Assembly: GCF_009734345.1 (NCBI RefSeq)
Contig: NZ_CP032551.1
Coordinates: 60,001 to 92,000, forward strand
Source of the DNA: Pseudidiomarina andamanensis
GTDB taxonomy: Bacteria; Pseudomonadota; Gammaproteobacteria; Enterobacterales; Alteromonadaceae
DNA: 32,000 nt
Direction of reading: 5' to 3'
Shown one piece after another: positions 13,127 through 23,682 of the stretch. The notes below the pieces were generated by a model. That model worked only from the letters and a program-made list of their open reading frames with translations. It searched no databases and was not told the DNA's origin. The first letter of the stretch is position 1; each line of letters opens with the position of its first letter. The position numbers and the translations under genes were made by a program.

Positions 13127-13203
13127 TGGCGTCTCCGGCAGGAGTCGAACCTGCGACCTGCCCCTTAGGAGGGGGCTGCTCTATCCAGCTGAGCTACGGA
13201 GAC
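13127..13203 (-). tRNA. tRNA-Arg (anticodon CCT).
   Basis: The reverse complement folds as a 77-nt cloverleaf: acceptor GTCTCCG/CGGAGAC, D arm GCTC..GAGC, anticodon stem GCCCC/GGGGC with loop CTCCTAA, T arm GCAGG TTCGACT CCTGC, encoded CCA. Confidence 0.95.
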
Positions 13204-13223
13204 ATACACTTTATACTAGACAT

Positions 13224-13249
13224 AAAAAAACCAGCCGCAGCTGGTTTTT
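13224..13249 (-). terminator. Candidate rpsT terminator; the hairpin is symmetrical, so it could act in both directions.
   Basis: aaaaaaa-ccagc-cgca-gctgg-ttttt. The GC stem is short (5 bp) and is extended by A/T pairing. Confidence 0.5.
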
Positions 13250-13285
13250 CTAAATCGTACGTCGGTAACGCAACCGAACAGCGTC

Positions 13286-13546
13286 TTACAGAGCGCTGAT
13301 TTTCGCGTTCAAACGACTCTTATGACGAGACGCTTTGTTTTTACCGATGAGACCTTTAGTCGCGTAACGGTCAAGTACCGGTTGAAGGCTAGTAAATGCC
13401 TGCTGTGCAGTCGCTTTATCGCCTGCTTCAATTGCAGCAGTTACTTTCTTCATCAAGGTACGCATCATTGAGCGACGGCTCGCGTTGTGGCGACGGTTCT
13501 TTTCCGCTTGTACCGCACGCTTTTTAGCAGACTTAATGTTAGCCAA
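13286..13546 (-). CDS. rpsT: 30S ribosomal protein S20.
   Basis: [30 protein letters not shown]... is near-identical in pattern to enterobacterial S20. AGGAG Shine-Dalgarno. Confidence 0.97.
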
Positions 13547-13597
13547 GGTGAACTCCTAAAATTCGTTATCTATGTGCAATGGTTTTGTAGGGCGGGG

Positions 13598-13626
13598 AAT
13601 ATGCCTGTTTTCGAGCCTAAAGTCAA
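13598..13626 (-). promoter_or_regulatory. Candidate rpsT sigma70 promoter.
   Basis: On the minus strand: TTGACT (13621-13626), 17-nt spacer, CATATT (13598-13603). Confidence 0.4.
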
Positions 13627-13636
13627 GAGCGAAGTT

Positions 13637-13678
13637 CGTTATTGGTTATTAGTTATTCGTTATTAGTTATTGGTTGGT
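13637..13678. repeat. Heptamer array, left arm of pair A: 6 units of NGTTATT.
   Basis: cgttatt ggttatt agttatt cgttatt agttatt ggttggt, read directly. Confidence 0.9.
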
Positions 13679-13778
13679 GTATTGTAATTGATTGATTGAA
13701 TTCAACATGGAGGTTGATATGAAAGCTCGTTTAATCGTCAAAGAAATTGCTATTGAATTGTGAGTTTATGTCTATGAA

Positions 13779-14072
13779 TTGACTAAAGCGTTTCCATATG
13801 AAGAACGTTACGGTTTGAGTAGTCAAATTAGGCGGTGTGCTGTTAGCGTTCCGAGTAATATTGCTGAGGGAGCGAATAGGCATTCGATTAAGGATTTTCT
13901 TCGATTCTTGTACATAGCTAAAGGCTCGCTTTCAGAGCTTGAAACACAACTTACAATTGCTGTTCGCTTAGGTTATATCTCTGACTTTGCAAATGATTTA
14001 TTATCTCGTACGCTCATGCTTATAAATGCGCTGATAAAATCGCTCAAACTACGAGTAACGAATAACCAATAA
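13779..14072 (+). CDS. Four-helix-bundle protein of the '23S rRNA intervening-sequence protein' family (PF05635/TIGR02436-like). Probably N-terminally damaged, possibly a pseudogene.
   Basis: ERYGLSSQIRRCAVSVPSNIAEGANRHSIKDFLRFLYIAKGSLSELETQLTIAVRLGYI matches the family signature. The only in-frame start left is TTG 13779. An upstream in-frame ATG (13719) is cut off by TGA at 13761-13763. Confidence 0.6.
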   Translation: MTKAFPYEERYGLSSQIRRCAVSVPSNIAEGANRHSIKDFLRFLYIAKGSLSELETQLTIAVRLGYISDFANDLLSRTLMLINALIKSLKLRVTNNQ

Positions 14073-14088
14073 CGAATAACGAACAACG
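14054..14088. repeat. Heptamer array, right arm of pair A: 5 units of AATAACN.
   Basis: agtaacg aataacc aataacg aataacg aacaacg. This array encodes the last residues (RVTNNQ) and the stop of the four-helix-bundle ORF. Confidence 0.9.
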
Positions 14089-14096
14089 GGGTTCTC

Positions 14097-15638
14097 TTGT
14101 CAAAGTCCTTAACTAAATCCGGCATCATTGTCAGCTTCATGACACTCATCTCGCGTGTGCTTGGGCTTGTGCGCGATGTGGTGATTGCGAACTTGATGGG
14201 GGCTGGGGCGGCGGCCGATGTGTTCTTCTTTGCGAACAAGATACCGAACTTTCTGCGTCGATTGTTTGCGGAAGGGGCGTTTGCGCAGGCGTTTGTGCCG
14301 GTACTGACTGAGTATAAGCAAGGTAAGACGCTGGATGAGCAGCGTTTGTTGATTGCTCGGGTGGCGGGTACGTTGGGTACGTTGGTGACGGTTGTGACAC
14401 TGGTGGGAGTGGTTGCCTCGCCGGTGGTGGCGGCGATGTTTGGTACGGGTTGGTTTCTTGATTGGTATCACGATGGTCCGCAAGGGCATAAGTTTGTTTT
14501 GGCGGCCGACTTGCTGCGTATTACGTTTCCGTATTTGTGGTTTATTACCTTTACCGCCTTAGCCGGCGCGATTTTAAATACGATTGGTAAGTTCGCGGTG
14601 GCGGCGTTTACGCCGGTATTTTTGAATATTGCGATTATTGTTTTCGCGATATGGCTTGGGCCGCAACTTGATCAACCCGAATATGCGCTAGCATGGGGTG
14701 TGTTTGTTGGTGGTGCCGTACAGTTCTTATTTCAAATTCCGTTTTTGAAGCGGGCAGGGTTATTGGTTCGTCCGCGATGGGGATGGCGAGACCCTGGCGT
14801 CACTAAAATCCGCACGTTAATGATTCCTGCCTTATTTGGGGTGTCGGTTAGTCAGATTAACCTACTATTGGATACGTTTATTGCATCGTTTTTAATGAGT
14901 GGTTCAATTAGCTGGTTATATTACTCCGACCGGTTATTGGAATTTCCGTTGGGATTATTTGGCATTGCGATTGCGACCGTTATTTTGCCAGCGTTAAGCT
15001 CACGTCATGTGGACAAGTCAGCCGAAGAGTTCAGCCGTACGTTGGATTGGGGTATTCGTACGGTTGTATTGCTTGGATTACCAGCCATGTGCGGTTTGAT
15101 TGTGCTTGCGGAGCCGATGCTGATGGTGTTGTTCATGCGCGGTGAATTCACGCCTGAAGATGCGCGCTTGGCCTCTTATAGTTTGTTTGCGTATGGCTCG
15201 GGCTTACTGAGTTTCATGTTGGTGAAGGTATTGGCGACTGGATTCTATTCACGCCAAGATACCAAGCGACCCGTGAAGTACGGCATTATCGCCATGATTT
15301 CAAACATGGTGTTCAATATCATTTTCGCGATTCCTTATGGTTATGTCGGTTTAGCCATTGCAACGTCTCTTTCTGCCGCTGTTAACGCCGGTTTGTTGGG
15401 CTATAACCTGTGGCGCGACGGTGTGCTCAAACGTTATCCCGGGACACTAACTTATCTCACCAAAGTAGCGCTATCTGTGGCCGCGATGGTTGCGGTGGTG
15501 TTCTATCTTGTACCTGCTCGATCGTGGTGGCTTGCGGCTGAATTTGTTGATCGAGCGTGCCAGTTGGCGTTGCTAATTGGCGCTGGGGCGGGAACGTATT
15601 TGCTGTCCCTCCTCCTTCTTCGCGTGAAAGTTCGTTAA
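14097..15638 (+). CDS. murJ: Lipid II flippase MurJ (MviN).
   Basis: SGIIVSFMTLISRVLGLVRDVVIANLMGAGAAADVFFFANKIPNFLRRLFAEGAFAQAFVPVL is the conserved MurJ N-terminus. Polytopic membrane protein, 513 aa, TTG start. Confidence 0.93.
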   Translation: MSKSLTKSGIIVSFMTLISRVLGLVRDVVIANLMGAGAAADVFFFANKIPNFLRRLFAEGAFAQAFVPVLTEYKQGKTLDEQRLLIARVAGTLGTLVTVVTLVGVVASPVVAAMFGTGWFLDWYHDGPQGHKFVLAADLLRITFPYLWFITFTALAGAILNTIGKFAVAAFTPVFLNIAIIVFAIWLGPQLDQPEYALAWGVFVGGAVQFLFQIPFLKRAGLLVRPRWGWRDPGVTKIRTLMIPALFGVSVSQINLLLDTFIASFLMSGSISWLYYSDRLLEFPLGLFGIAIATVILPALSSRHVDKSAEEFSRTLDWGIRTVVLLGLPAMCGLIVLAEPMLMVLFMRGEFTPEDARLASYSLFAYGSGLLSFMLVKVLATGFYSRQDTKRPVKYGIIAMISNMVFNIIFAIPYGYVGLAIATSLSAAVNAGLLGYNLWRDGVLKRYPGTLTYLTKVALSVAAMVAVVFYLVPARSWWLAAEFVDRACQLALLIGAGAGTYLLSLLLLRVKVR

Positions 15639-15684
15639 TCGTTAATCGTTAATCGTTATTCGTTATTGGTTATTGGTTGTTCGT
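15633..15684. repeat. Heptamer array, left arm of pair B: about 7.5 units.
   Basis: cgttaat x3, cgttatt x2, ggttatt, ggttgtt, cgt. The murJ last codon and its TAA stop (15636-15638) lie inside the first unit. Confidence 0.9.
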
Positions 15685-16828: not shown

Positions 16829-16850
16829 CTCTCTCGCTCGCGCTTTTTCG

Positions 16851-16878
16851 AATAACGAATAACCAATAACCAATAACG
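16851..16878. repeat. Heptamer array, right arm of pair B: 4 units.
   Basis: aataacg aataacc aataacc aataacg, followed by ctttt. Confidence 0.9.
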
Positions 16879-16981: not shown

Positions 16982-17251
16982 GTGAAACGACCGCGCGTGA
17001 CCACTGTGTCAGGGTTTAAGAAAGAAATTGCCACCATGGATGTGAATGAACCGGTTTTGGTGACCCAGAACGGTGAACCGCTGTATGTGGTGCAAGACCC
17101 TGCCCAATACGAAGCCATGCAAGAGCAGATGGCGATGTTGAAAATGATTGCACTGGCTGAAAAGGATGTTCGGGCTGGTCGTGTTGTGAGCCGAGAAGAG
17201 CTCTTCAAAGGATTGGCAGAGGAGCTCGGCGCAGATGACGATCTCAATTGA
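16982..17251 (+). CDS. Phd/YefM-like type II antitoxin.
   Basis: 89 aa. VSGFKKEIATMDVNEPVLVTQNGEPLYVVQDPAQYEAM fits the Phd/YefM N-terminal pattern, and the tail is acidic. It overlaps the downstream toxin-like ORF by 17 nt. The GTG start is uncertain. Confidence 0.6.
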   Translation: MKRPRVTTVSGFKKEIATMDVNEPVLVTQNGEPLYVVQDPAQYEAMQEQMAMLKMIALAEKDVRAGRVVSREELFKGLAEELGADDDLN

Positions 17252-17582
17252 TTATACGAGCCATTTCAAATCCCAAGCTCGTAACCAAGTAAGGTTTCTT
17301 ATAAAAAAAGTGGGGTATCGATTAGCACAACAATTCGTTGATAGCGTACTTGACCAATTTGAACAAAAAGTTTTGATGTTTCCCCAACGATGCGCTCGAT
17401 GTTCAGAAAGTGCAGAAGTAGGTTTTGGACAATATTACGAATTTATTGATACAAAGACGCAGGTTCGGATTATTTATCGGCTTGCCGAGGGAGATGATTC
17501 GCATATATCGGCCCTGTTATTTGTGCGAACAAGACAAGATTTGCGTGATCAGCTTTTTCAGCTGGTATTAATGAGCCCTTAG
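17235..17582 (+). CDS. RelE/ParE-superfamily toxin (ParE-like).
   Basis: 115 aa, small and basic, translationally coupled to the antitoxin. ...YYEFIDTKTQVRIIYRLAEGDDSHISALLFVRTRQD resembles the ParE C-terminal pattern. Weak motif-level call. Confidence 0.55.
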   Translation: MTISIDYTSHFKSQARNQVRFLIKKVGYRLAQQFVDSVLDQFEQKVLMFPQRCARCSESAEVGFGQYYEFIDTKTQVRIIYRLAEGDDSHISALLFVRTRQDLRDQLFQLVLMSP

Positions 17583-17663: not shown

Positions 17664-18596
17664 ATGCAGTTAATTCGCGGAATCCATAATATTCGACCTA
17701 AGCACCGTGGGTGTGTCCTTACTATTGGCAACTTTGATGGTGTTCATTTGGGCCATCAAGCGGTGTTGGCGCAAGTAAAAGCACAGGCACTTGCTCGTAG
17801 TGTTCCAGCGACGGTGATGACCTTTGAGCCGCAACCGCAAGAGCTGTTTCAGCCTGATAAAGCACCGGCGCGATTAACGAATTTTCGTGAAAAGCACATG
17901 GCGCTGCGCGAGCAGGGTATCGACCGCCATATTGTCATTGAGTTTAATCGCAAATTTTCTAATTTGCCGGCGCGCGAGTTTATCGAGCGAGTGCTGGTTG
18001 AGATGCTCGGTGTGCAATTTTTGGTGGTCGGCGATGATTTTCGTTTCGGCCACGGTCGCGAAGGTGATTTCGCGATGTTGCAACGCGCTGGCGCAGAGCT
18101 GGGCTTCGAGGTGGTTGATACGCAGAGTTACCGTCAACAACAGCAACGTGTTAGCAGTACTGCGATACGTCAGTGCTTAAGTGATGGCGATTTTACCCAA
18201 GCAGCAGCTATGCTTGGTCGGCCGTATGCATTTCAAGGGCGCGTGGTGCATGGTGAGAAAAAAGGCCGTACTATCGGTTTTCCAACCGCAAATATTCAGT
18301 TAAAACGGTTGCATTCGCCGCTTCAGGGCGTATTTGCTGTGCAGGTACAATGCAATGATGGCAAAATGCATGCAGGCGTTGCTAATATTGGCAGACGGCC
18401 AACATTGAATGGTGAGCGAGTGCAGCTAGAGGTGCATTTGTTCGATTTTGCGGGCGATTTATATGGGCAGCAGTTGCGGGTGGTGCCAACGCACTTTATT
18501 CGCGCGGAGCAGAAGTTTGCTGATTTTGCGCAGCTGCAGCAACAAATCGCCGCCGACGCTGAAAAGGCAAAGGCGTTACTCGTTATTGGTTATTAG
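17664..18596 (+). CDS. ribF: Bifunctional riboflavin kinase / FMN adenylyltransferase.
   Basis: MQLIRGIHNIRPKHRGCVLTIGNFDGVHLGHQAVL and GRTIGFPTANI motifs. 310 aa. Confidence 0.96.
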   Translation: MQLIRGIHNIRPKHRGCVLTIGNFDGVHLGHQAVLAQVKAQALARSVPATVMTFEPQPQELFQPDKAPARLTNFREKHMALREQGIDRHIVIEFNRKFSNLPAREFIERVLVEMLGVQFLVVGDDFRFGHGREGDFAMLQRAGAELGFEVVDTQSYRQQQQRVSSTAIRQCLSDGDFTQAAAMLGRPYAFQGRVVHGEKKGRTIGFPTANIQLKRLHSPLQGVFAVQVQCNDGKMHAGVANIGRRPTLNGERVQLEVHLFDFAGDLYGQQLRVVPTHFIRAEQKFADFAQLQQQIAADAEKAKALLVIGY

Positions 18597-18645
18597 TTAA
18601 TCGTTAAAACCAAACATGAACGACGAATAACGAATAACGCTTTTT
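18574..18645. repeat. Heptamer-array pair C: left 18574-18605, 13-nt loop, right 18619-18639, then a T-run. Likely an imperfect hairpin/terminator-like element between ribF and ileS.
   Basis: cgttact cgttatt ggttatt agttaat cgtt / aacgacg aataacg aataacg + cttttt. The last 7 codons of ribF and its TAG stop are inside the left arm. Confidence 0.85.
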
Positions 18646-22501: not shown

Positions 22502-22573
22502 CGTTACTCGTTAGTCGTTACTCGTTATTCGAAAAGGACAACACGAATAACTAATAACGAACAACGAACAACG
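22502..22573. repeat. Heptamer-array pair D: left 22502-22531, 12-nt loop, right 22544-22573, between fkpB and ispH.
   Basis: cgttact cgttagt cgttact cgttatt cg / cg aataact aataacg aacaacg aacaacg. It ends 14 nt before the ispH ATG. Confidence 0.9.
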
Positions 22574-22587
22574 AAGTTGGAGTTTTT

Positions 22588-23532: not shown

Positions 23533-23682
23533 CGTTGTTCGTTATTCGTTATTTGTTATTCGTTAAATATCAAAAAATCTCCGTGTGCATAGGTTATATG
23601 TACAACGGAGATTTTCAGTTTTTAGTGCTTCGTGTTTTGCTTTTTCGAATAACGAATAACTAATAACGAATAACCAATAACG
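23533..23682. repeat. Heptamer-array pair E: left 23533-23564, right 23646-23682, enclosing an 81-nt loop that itself contains a terminator hairpin.
   Basis: cgttgtt cgttatt cgttatt tgttatt cgtt ... cg aataacg aataact aataacg aataacc aataacg. Confidence 0.9.
23574..23625. terminator. Bidirectional rho-independent terminator between the convergent ispH and pilE genes.
   Basis: aaaatctccgt (23574-23584) pairs with acggagatttt (23605-23615). T-runs follow on both strands (ttttcagttttt on plus, ttttttgat on minus). Confidence 0.7.

Follow-up and report, generated by a model that had tools for sequence, protein, structure and literature searches.

A tandem-heptamer hairpin encloses a four-helix-bundle gene between rpsT and murJ in Pseudidiomarina, and similar hairpins bracket many genes of the same family

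The window analyzed here is a stretch of 32,000 nucleotides from Pseudidiomarina andamanensis (contig NZ_CP032551.1, positions 60,001 to 92,000). Between rpsT and murJ it contains a gene of the four-helix-bundle (4HB) family PF05635/TIGR02436, a very large family of unknown function that is named for its rare location in intervening sequences (IVSs) of 23S rRNA. The gene lies in the loop between two inverted arrays of tandem heptamers, which we call pair A. We refer to the two arrays together with the gene as the cassette.

RESULTS

Inverted heptamer arrays enclose a 4HB gene in the rpsT-murJ gap

The pair A arrays are inverted copies of (GTTATTN)n at window positions 13634-13675 and 14051-14088, with the 4HB open reading frame (ORF) between them. 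Tandem Repeats Finder (TRF) reported a period of 7 and 5.4 copies for each array. The arms are 34 nt long, 88% complementary, and separated by ~375-383 nt. We counted 29 copies of the two-unit pattern GTTATTNGTTATT in the window, compared with 0.27 expected from shuffles, and all of them sort into five convergent pairs located from 13.6 to 23.7 kb. We defined a convergent pair as an intergenic array of at least three tandem 7-nt units with a complementary array on the other strand. All five pairs are of this kind, each being intergenic or overlapping ORF ends. The 375-nt loop of pair A contains the only 4HB ORF of the window. The features of the gap are as follows.

13598-13626, minus strand: rpsT promoter-like site (TTGACT, 17-nt spacer, CATATT), from a sigma-70 consensus scan
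13634-13675, plus strand: left (5') arm, ~5.4 tandem heptamers GTTATTN, G/T-rich, from TRF and folds
13709-13713, plus strand: Shine-Dalgarno-like GGAGG, 5 nt 5' of the 4HB ATG, read from the sequence and kept in L002 and P. marina (L212)
13719-14072, plus strand: 4HB gene (PF05635/TIGR02436, S23p/IVS-protein family), 117 codons, broken at codon 15, from profile searches
13761-13763, plus strand: in-frame TGA, aligned with Cys (TGT) in a near-identical allele and with Cys in all orthologues
14051-14088, plus strand: right (3') arm, ~5.4 heptamers ACGAATA, from TRF, encoding RVTNNQ and the stop
14097-15638, plus strand: murJ (lipid II flippase), TTG start, 97% identity to P. marina MurJ, with Pfam MurJ matches for the orthologues

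The spacing of these features is tight. Only 8 nt separate the left arm from the rpsT -35 hexamer (TTGACT, 13626-13621), and 9 nt separate the right arm from the murJ TTG. The 4HB ATG is 43 nt from the left arm, and the sequence directly after the right arm is GGGGTTCTCTTG. The 4HB ORF is on the same strand as murJ, the first host gene 3' of the cassette, so that an S23p-family ORF in the loop is sense to murJ. When both strands of 13200-14300 were scanned, the rpsT promoter-like site was the sole sigma-70-like match. The rpsT promoter region is kept in all Pseudidiomarina loci, including that of P. salinarum, which is free of the cassette. No terminator-like site (intrinsic, Rho-independent) was found at pair A. 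A sequence-only reading of this stretch had placed the ATG at 13719, the TGA at 13761-13763, the RVTNNQ tail and stop in the right arm, the rpsT -35 hexamer, and the murJ TTG at 14097, all of which we reproduced.

There is no rRNA in the window. The only Rfam match over its whole length is a tRNA-Arg, and no Rfam family matched the heptamer hairpins. The tRNA-Arg gene (CCT; 13127-13203, minus strand) is directly downstream of rpsT, and two Logan contigs used below (L001 and L003) start within it.

The window 4HB gene differs from an intact allele by one nonsense codon

The sequence-only reading had recognized a 4HB-family ORF in the pair A loop, and profile searches confirmed it. PF05635 matched the 97-amino-acid fragment with an E value of 6e-30 (104 bits). 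The frame from the ATG at 13719, with the TGA masked, gave 1.3e-34 (119 bits; cut-off, 33.8) and covered profile positions 3-102 of 106. TIGR02436 matched at 1.7e-33 (115 bits; cut-off, 24). Among solved structures, the protein has a sequence relative that forms a homopentamer of four-helix bundles. The nearest is 2GSC, which is XCC0516 of Xanthomonas campestris (E = 3.3e-27), and 2RLD matched at 7e-7.

An intact full-length ORF (~110-125 amino acids, four helices) is absent from the window, where an in-frame TGA stands at codon 15. Logan contig L001 encodes an intact protein of 117 amino acids (P0001) that is 99% identical to the window ORF. Over ~920 aligned bases, L001 and the window differ at four positions. 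The sole coding difference is TGT (Cys) in L001 versus TGA in the window, and the other three are at "N" positions of left-arm heptamers. With the L001 left arm, 32 of 34 stem positions match, versus 30 of 34 in the window. Two of the three left-arm differences weaken the window stem relative to L001. Either mutation of the arrays is much faster than that of the adjoining sequence, or the arrays are prone to assembly errors; L001 and L003 both terminate within the right arm.

The ORF had been described as decayed, and this was only partly right. The in-frame TGA is present in the window sequence. However, a single T-to-A change separates the window from an otherwise identical intact allele, and therefore the ORF is not broadly decayed. 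The N-terminal helix had been thought missing, but it is present, because the profile match begins at position 3 and starts upstream of the TGA. A near-duplication around the TGA does exist, but it is uninformative. We discarded it as a mark of decay, as it is ordinary coding sequence (IEL / YEL) that the intact L001 allele has too.

Is the TGA a null mutation? It could instead be a sequencing or assembly error, or it could be recoded as selenocysteine or by read-through, and the gene would then be functional in the window strain. Every orthologue has Cys at this codon, which is the classic selenocysteine signature, and the TGA is the only coding difference from L001. However, no selenocysteine insertion sequence (SECIS)-like structure was found 3' of the TGA (fold z, -0.6), and the sequence 3' of the codon is identical in the TGT allele. 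PF05635/TIGR02436 is not known to be a selenoprotein family, which also weighs against recoding. We rejected selenocysteine for want of a SECIS-like fold, and we consider a non-null TGA of any kind very improbable. From the alignments, the window ORF would carry either one very recent nonsense change (TGT to TGA) or a sequencing error, and the window copy would accordingly be listed as a putative pseudogene or as a gene with a sequencing error.

The cassette is conserved as a block in Pseudidiomarina

We fetched Pseudidiomarina loci through 4HB or MurJ homologues. The cassette loci were L002, L004 (P. atlantica), L006 to L008 (P. halophila), L009 to L011, L212 (P. marina), and L216 (P. taiwanensis). 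The cassette is syntenic between rpsT and murJ in seven Pseudidiomarina genomes, with inverted period-7 arrays flanking the 4HB gene. The heptamers vary by species: GTACGCT/TCGCTGT in P. halophila, TTTGCTA/TTCGCTG in L009, and GATATTA in P. marina. In minimum free energy (MFE) folds of the plus-strand RNA, a closing stem of 35-57 bp surrounds the ORF in all seven cassettes. The window arms are paired in both the MFE and the centroid folds, with 38 long-range pairs. The C-terminal tails of orthologues (RITNNE, RITNND, and RTANSE) are, like that of the window ORF, encoded by right arms.

Pairwise ratios of nonsynonymous to synonymous substitution (dN/dS) among the orthologues were 0.04-0.26, with dS saturated. 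Therefore, purifying selection acts on the 4HB protein. When the window is aligned with P. marina, the flanks are 83-91% identical, the alignment breaks exactly at the outer arm ends, and the 4HB proteins are only 47% identical. Therefore, arm, ORF, and arm make up one replaceable block. We did not take this swap as proof of element mobility, as homologous recombination through the flanks is equally possible between genomes that are only ~83-91% identical. The cassette has been in the rpsT-murJ gap since before the divergence of the sampled Pseudidiomarina species.

Relatives were also compared for an insert-free rpsT-murJ gap. Four loci had no 4HB gene: those of Idiomarina loihiensis (L213), Aliidiomarina maris (L214), P. 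salinarum (L215), and an Idiomarina metagenome-assembled genome (MAG; L217). Two of them are not free of inserts, however. In P. salinarum (L215 8183-9994) and the Idiomarina MAG (L217 8092-9912), a DUF885 gene takes the place of the 4HB cassette in the gap, and its orientation in one is opposite to that in the other. Insertions seem to recur at this gap. Arrays at the P. taiwanensis locus differ in layout: a G/T array and then an A/C array stand on each side of the 4HB gene, one array has a 16-nt period, and a 216-nt array of ~31 AACCAAT units lies 3' of murJ.

Heptamer arms bracket 4HB genes across bacteria

To survey the family, we scanned metagenome contigs with conserved 4HB peptide patterns. 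This gave 80 loci, and 78 genes had enough flanking sequence to be scored. For the bracket score, we took the highest-scoring ungapped inverted repeat with one arm in the 300 nt upstream of the gene and the other in the 250 nt downstream, and we made 100 shuffles per gene. Fifty-five of the 78 genes scored above all 100 of their shuffles, and the arm period was 7 in 43 genes and 8 in 11. A score of at least 14 was found for 48 of the 78 4HB genes, which are unrelated, whereas of 124 control ORFs taken from those loci, just 1 reached it. The ORF terminates inside an arm in many of these loci. None of the 80 contained rRNA.

Finished cyanobacterial plasmids gave a similar picture, with 8 of 9 4HB genes bracketed. 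The plasmid genes lie between cas6 and cas4, cmr2 and cmr3, nrdB and nrdA (antisense), or parA and parB, or after integrase genes. Bracketed examples are those at cas6-cas4 in Anabaena sp. 90 and Pseudanabaena, at cmr2-cmr3 in Picosynechococcus, and antisense at nrdB-nrdA in Nostoc edaphicum (plasmids L218, L222, L224, and L219). A tblastn search of a phage collection for 4HB proteins found no match.

The arms share more than their period. After rotation, those of 41 unrelated loci have a common core, nAGTGrn (A, 73%; G, 95%; T, 72%), which scored z = 11.5 against a position-permuted null and was reached by 0 of 200 permutations. NGTTATT of the window matches the GT of this core. The 5' arms are poor in C (G, 39%; T, 28%; A, 25%; C, 8%). 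However, an inverted repeat reads G/T arm first on either strand, and so this composition is uninformative about gene orientation. We also dismissed arm orientation relative to the ORF as a signal: the split between co-directional neighbors (37 sense versus 3 antisense) is that expected of any operon gene. Up to 300 nt from a 4HB gene, period-7/8 arrays had a density of 2.6 per kb, which then dropped to 0.31, 0.28, 0.15, and 0.13 per kb going outward.

The converse search started from the arrays. A scan of genome contigs for (GTTATTN)3 gave at least 120 loci, and the matches listed came from cyanobacteria, Bacteroidota, the candidate phyla radiation, and others but not from Idiomarinaceae. Only one of these listed loci had a 4HB gene near the array; the other 119 had none within 8 kb. 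Therefore, the arrays do not predict the gene, whereas the gene predicts arrays, and we rejected (GTTATTN)n arrays as general 4HB markers. The lone 4HB gene is in a Bacteroidales MAG (L072 1090-1590), where inverted GGTTATT arrays bracket it. It has the same heptamer as the window despite the distant phylum, and a stop codon falls within its conserved GSL.EL region. Many of the other arrays among the matches listed form short-loop convergent pairs.

From these counts, the tandem-heptamer hairpin appears to be the normal packaging of the PF05635/TIGR02436 family. It seems to be undescribed in the searchable literature: a full-text search found no statement of a family-wide heptamer bracket, though such absence is no proof that it is unpublished.

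At one metagenomic locus (L166), a group II intron domain (1560-1638; Rfam RF00029, 50.5 bits) lies ~240 nt downstream of the 4HB gene on the opposite strand. A link to an element that bears a reverse transcriptase is possible.

ORF-less hairpins punctuate the murJ-ispH operon

The other four convergent pairs of the window all lie downstream of pair A.

15631-15684, plus strand: pair B 5' arm, ~7.7 heptamers, from TRF
16849-16878, plus strand: pair B 3' arm, from TRF
18574-18639, plus strand: pair C, ORF-less heptamer hairpin in the ribF-ileS gap, RNA fold of -21.7 kcal/mol, z -4.2
22502-22575, plus strand: pair D, ORF-less heptamer hairpin in the fkpB-ispH gap, fold z -3.4
23533-23682, plus strand: pair E, heptamer hairpin 3' of ispH with an 80-nt loop, fold of -56.9 kcal/mol, z -10

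The gaps occupied by pairs C and D also hold arrays in L004, L009, L006, and L212. In pair E, a terminator-like hairpin with a U-run is nested within the outer heptamer stem; no other pair has a terminator-like loop. The pair B loop contains a gene for a 383-amino-acid alpha/beta-hydrolase (Abhydrolase_6, E = 9e-9) with a lipoprotein-like signal. Its P. marina counterpart (L212 11546-11705) has a 60-nt loop and no gene, and P. atlantica is also without the hydrolase gene. Therefore, the loop of a heptamer hairpin took in an unrelated gene.

Additional period-7 arrays were found in the gaps of murJ-ribF-ileS-lspA-fkpB-ispH in all seven cassette loci, and none was found in the ~10 kb upstream of these cassettes. 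The four 4HB-free loci, at ~21 kb each, had no period-7 arrays and had short intergenic gaps. However, the positive loci form one clade, and so 7/7 versus 0/4 may reflect a single evolutionary gain. The hairpins are of the same heptamer type as the 4HB arms throughout the window (GTTATTN) and in P. marina (GATATTA), whereas the two types differ in L002, L006, and L009. The sequence-only reading had suggested that short-loop hairpins could be ORF-less derivatives of an IVS-like element. Their co-occurrence with the cassette and the frequent concordance of heptamer types within genomes are in keeping with that suggestion, but the ORF-less loops have no 4HB remnants, and one loop has the unrelated hydrolase gene.

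Between pair B and ribF (16982-17582), the window encodes a PhdYeFM-type antitoxin of 89 amino acids and an overlapping 115-amino-acid ORF that has no Pfam match, which together look like a toxin-antitoxin pair. Both are present in P. marina and L009 and absent from P. atlantica and P. halophila.

DISCUSSION

The explanation that we favor, with a probability of roughly 0.6, is that the window has a resident copy of a widespread cassette (a 5' G/T-rich heptamer array, a 4HB ORF, and a complementary 3' array) that acts as an RNase III-cleaved hairpin in an operon leader. Judged by its sequence, the cassette is an IVS-type element outside rRNA, with the architecture of an ORF-bearing 23S rRNA IVS. 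On our analysis, an RNA hairpin cleaved by RNase III is the most likely mechanism. We favor it because a promoter would not fit outside the cassette, given the tight geometry, and because there are two experimental precedents (PMC4990558, PMC12721329).

We infer that murJ and the arms share a transcript, in which the arms pair, and that RNase III cleaves the stem. With no promoter room between the arm and the start codon, the cassette would be cotranscribed with murJ. Pairing of the arms in the RNA would make a stem of at least 30 bp, with the entire ORF closed off by it. Cutting of this stem by host RNase III would separate the 4HB message from the murJ message and set the murJ 5' end just upstream of the murJ ribosome-binding site. 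The ORF-less hairpins of the same type in the gaps from murJ to ispH might likewise be punctuation for processing or stability. Being repeats, the arms would tolerate slippage when they pair. Such a cassette would be adapted to transcribed spacers and would leave the host RNA unbroken. The earlier suggestion that murJ may have to be transcribed through, or from within, the element is thus in line with our results, the backing being geometric (no promoter room outside, and no plus-strand consensus promoter found).

Several points weigh against this explanation. The scan of 13200-14300 found no plus-strand consensus promoter for either the 4HB gene or murJ, and so both arms are presumed to lie on one RNA. 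The arm mismatches also give no sign of selection on the RNA. They comprised 38 sense G-U wobbles, 57 antisense wobbles, and 81 transversions, and with no excess of sense-RNA wobble, nothing specifically favors pairing of RNA over pairing of DNA. We abandoned this strand test (38 versus 57) as evidence for RNA-level selection; an apparent wobble signal in L006 and L009 did not generalize. At two loci, the 4HB gene is between two complete hairpins and not in a single loop: P. taiwanensis (L216 9180-9993, 11548-11810) and the Pseudanabaena plasmid (L222). The cassette model, in which cleavage of the window stem by RNase III is put forward as probable, leaves the function of the 4HB protein unexplained. 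Finally, neither conservation of a heptamer core nor a constant period of 7 is needed for a plain stem, and both hint at a sequence-specific factor, possibly the 4HB protein itself.

If there is such a factor, then the arrays could be its binding sites on DNA or RNA, and the hairpin might be a by-product of two convergent binding arrays and not primarily an RNase III substrate. We regard this as unlikely, although several patterns point to it. The nAGTGrn core and the fixed 7-nt period recur in the arms of 41 unrelated loci, and arrays become sparser away from 4HB genes, from 0.31 to 0.13 per kb. At the rpsT-murJ locus, arrays occur only where the 4HB gene does, in 7/7 versus 0/4 loci, and one heptamer type serves both arms and hairpins in the window and in P. 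marina. In Xanthomonas, a GGGAATC array overlaps the start of XCC0516. The most economical candidate for the factor would be an Avd-like 4HB pentamer that autoregulates via its own arms and acts on the ORF-less hairpins; alternatively, the 4HB protein might help to generate, homogenize, or mobilize the arrays. However, the seven positive loci are one clade and maybe a single gain, the hairpins of L002, L006, and L009 are of another heptamer type than the 4HB arms, and 119 of the at least 120 (GTTATTN)3 loci listed have no 4HB gene within 8 kb. Arrays also persist in the window despite the broken ORF, although that break could be very recent. A broader form of the idea, which we hold as doubtful, makes the 4HB pentamer and the nAGTGrn arrays one system. 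The protein would recognize the arrays, whether as RNA or as DNA, and either regulate all hairpin-punctuated transcripts or drive the creation, homogenization, and spread of the arrays and its own cassette, possibly via an RNA intermediate released by RNase III. In cyanobacteria, the short tandemly repeated repetitive (STRR) sequences are abundant intergenic heptamer arrays. A single system, if real, would explain the origin of ORF-bearing rRNA IVSs and the function of a very large "hypothetical" family, and it would also account for the intergenic heptamer excess in cyanobacteria (STRR), Xanthomonas, Bacteroidota, and Beggiatoaceae.

A simpler possibility is that the arms are generic intergenic repeats, such as repetitive extragenic palindromic (REP) sequences or bacterial interspersed mosaic elements (BIMEs), miniature transposable elements with inverted repeats (MITEs), or simple-sequence repeats. 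Their loops would be permissive insertion sites, and the 4HB gene would be carried passively, functionally unconnected to the arms. This fits the ORF-less hairpins, which far outnumber those with an ORF, and the pair B loop, with its unrelated hydrolase gene that the P. marina hairpin does not have. It also fits the terminator-like hairpin in the pair E loop. Moreover, Xanthomonas, Nostoc, and Beggiatoaceae are known to have heptamer arrays in abundance between their genes (PMC4692102, PMC4679880). However, the bracketing is strongly specific (48/78 4HB genes versus 1/124 other ORFs), the ORF ends inside an arm in many loci, arm, ORF, and arm were replaced as a block between the window and P. 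marina, and the 4HB protein is under purifying selection. We therefore think this explanation improbable.

Our results suggest that the real unit of PF05635/TIGR02436 is a cassette of heptamer array, ORF, and complementary array, which resides inside murJ, cas, cmr, nrd, and par operons as well as in rRNA and is accompanied by ORF-less hairpins of like design. If so, then ORF-bearing IVSs would make up a minority of the copies of a general element, namely those that reside in rRNA. The cassette would also offer a testable handle on the over-representation of tandem heptamers in many bacterial genomes. Expression of murJ in Pseudidiomarina, and probably that of ribF-ileS-lspA-fkpB-ispH, would proceed through long double-stranded RNA, with RNase III processing as a normal part of it.

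Comparison with known systems

IVSs are inserted in 23S (or 16S) rRNA genes, typically in helix 25 or 45. The Pseudidiomarina cassette resembles the ORF-bearing IVSs of Coxiella burnetii, Leptospira, Xanthomonas, and Brucella in its PF05635 protein, in the long terminal-inverted-repeat stem around the ORF, and in the sense orientation of the ORF to the host transcript. It differs in being outside rRNA, between rpsT and murJ, as the 80 metagenomic loci also are. In addition, IVSs of 23S rRNA are excised by RNase III, whereas the cassette is known here from its sequence and predicted folds. The Coxiella IVS has a 28-bp terminal stem and 3 to 4 tandem heptamers (GACAGAT) before the S23p ORF, with a copy number that varies among strains (Warrier et al. 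2016, PMC4990558), and RNase III cuts it at the first repeat (PMC4990558). Tandem heptamers in the stem region are thus common to both. However, Coxiella S23p is thought to be untranslated and decaying, whereas the Pseudidiomarina 4HB protein is under purifying selection among species. The sequence-only reading had proposed an IVS-like stem/ORF/stem layout outside rRNA. The same layout in seven Pseudidiomarina genomes, its status as the norm across the family, and the Coxiella IVS heptamers (PMC4990558) all bear this out.

Genes of this family have been seen outside rRNA before. The presence of 23S_rRNA_IVP genes inside cas operons was noted earlier (Zhang and Ye 2013, PMC3936711), in agreement with the cas-locus 4HB genes of the cyanobacterial plasmids analyzed here.

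The homologous four-helix-bundle fold also relates the window protein to Avd of diversity-generating retroelements (DGRs), with weak matches to bAvd (PF22296, E = 1e-3) and DivGenRetAVD. In DGRs, Avd binds both nucleic acid and the reverse transcriptase. However, the window protein is not an Avd of a DGR: it scored 22 bits against DivGenRetAVD (NF033474), for which the cut-off is 80, and neither a reverse transcriptase nor a template/variable repeat was found in the window or among the genes tabulated for the orthologous loci.

REP/BIME elements and MITEs are likewise short palindromic intergenic elements that are repeated in a genome and can punctuate operons. However, the 4HB arms are tandem 7-nt repeats with a core shared across phyla, not unique palindromes or transposon terminal repeats, and they are specifically associated with one small protein family. 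We saw no transposase or target-site duplication with the cassette.

Intergenic heptamer arrays of Xanthomonas (GGGAATC), Nostoc (GGGGA(C/T)T), and Beggiatoaceae and cyanobacteria (TAACTGA) are closer in form, as tandem 7-nt units that are often in convergent pairs. Their positions are kept between relatives while their length and sequence vary. The reverse complement of TAACTGA gives CAGTTAT, which is near NGTTATT of the window and the nAGTGrn core. Such arrays are abundant in Xanthomonas, Nostoc, and Beggiatoaceae and have had no assigned function (Rehm et al. 2015, PMC4692102; MacGregor 2015, PMC4679880). X. campestris has 70 convergent heptamer-array pairs (PMC4692102). Neither PMC4692102 nor PMC4679880 mentions 4HB genes. 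In the supplementary table of Rehm et al., a GGGAATC array lies over the start codon of XCC0516, the crystallized 4HB protein (PMC4692102).

A precedent for a heptamer hairpin in an mRNA leader comes from another gammaproteobacterium. In the 5' untranslated region of the Haemophilus influenzae hmw genes, an (ATCTTTC)n array forms a long hairpin that RNase III processes (Rapun-Araiz et al. 2025, PMC12721329). As in our model, the transcribed tandem-heptamer array of hmw1A is one arm of the hairpin. There, RNase III processing modulates expression of the downstream gene, and the repeat number varies (PMC12721329). However, the hmw1A hairpin has neither an ORF in its loop nor a 4HB gene, its right arm is a G-rich region and not a complementary heptamer array, and it serves phase variation of an adhesin. 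The best place for the Pseudidiomarina cassette, the structure of which our analysis supports, is with the IVS/S23p element, as a variant of it outside rRNA.

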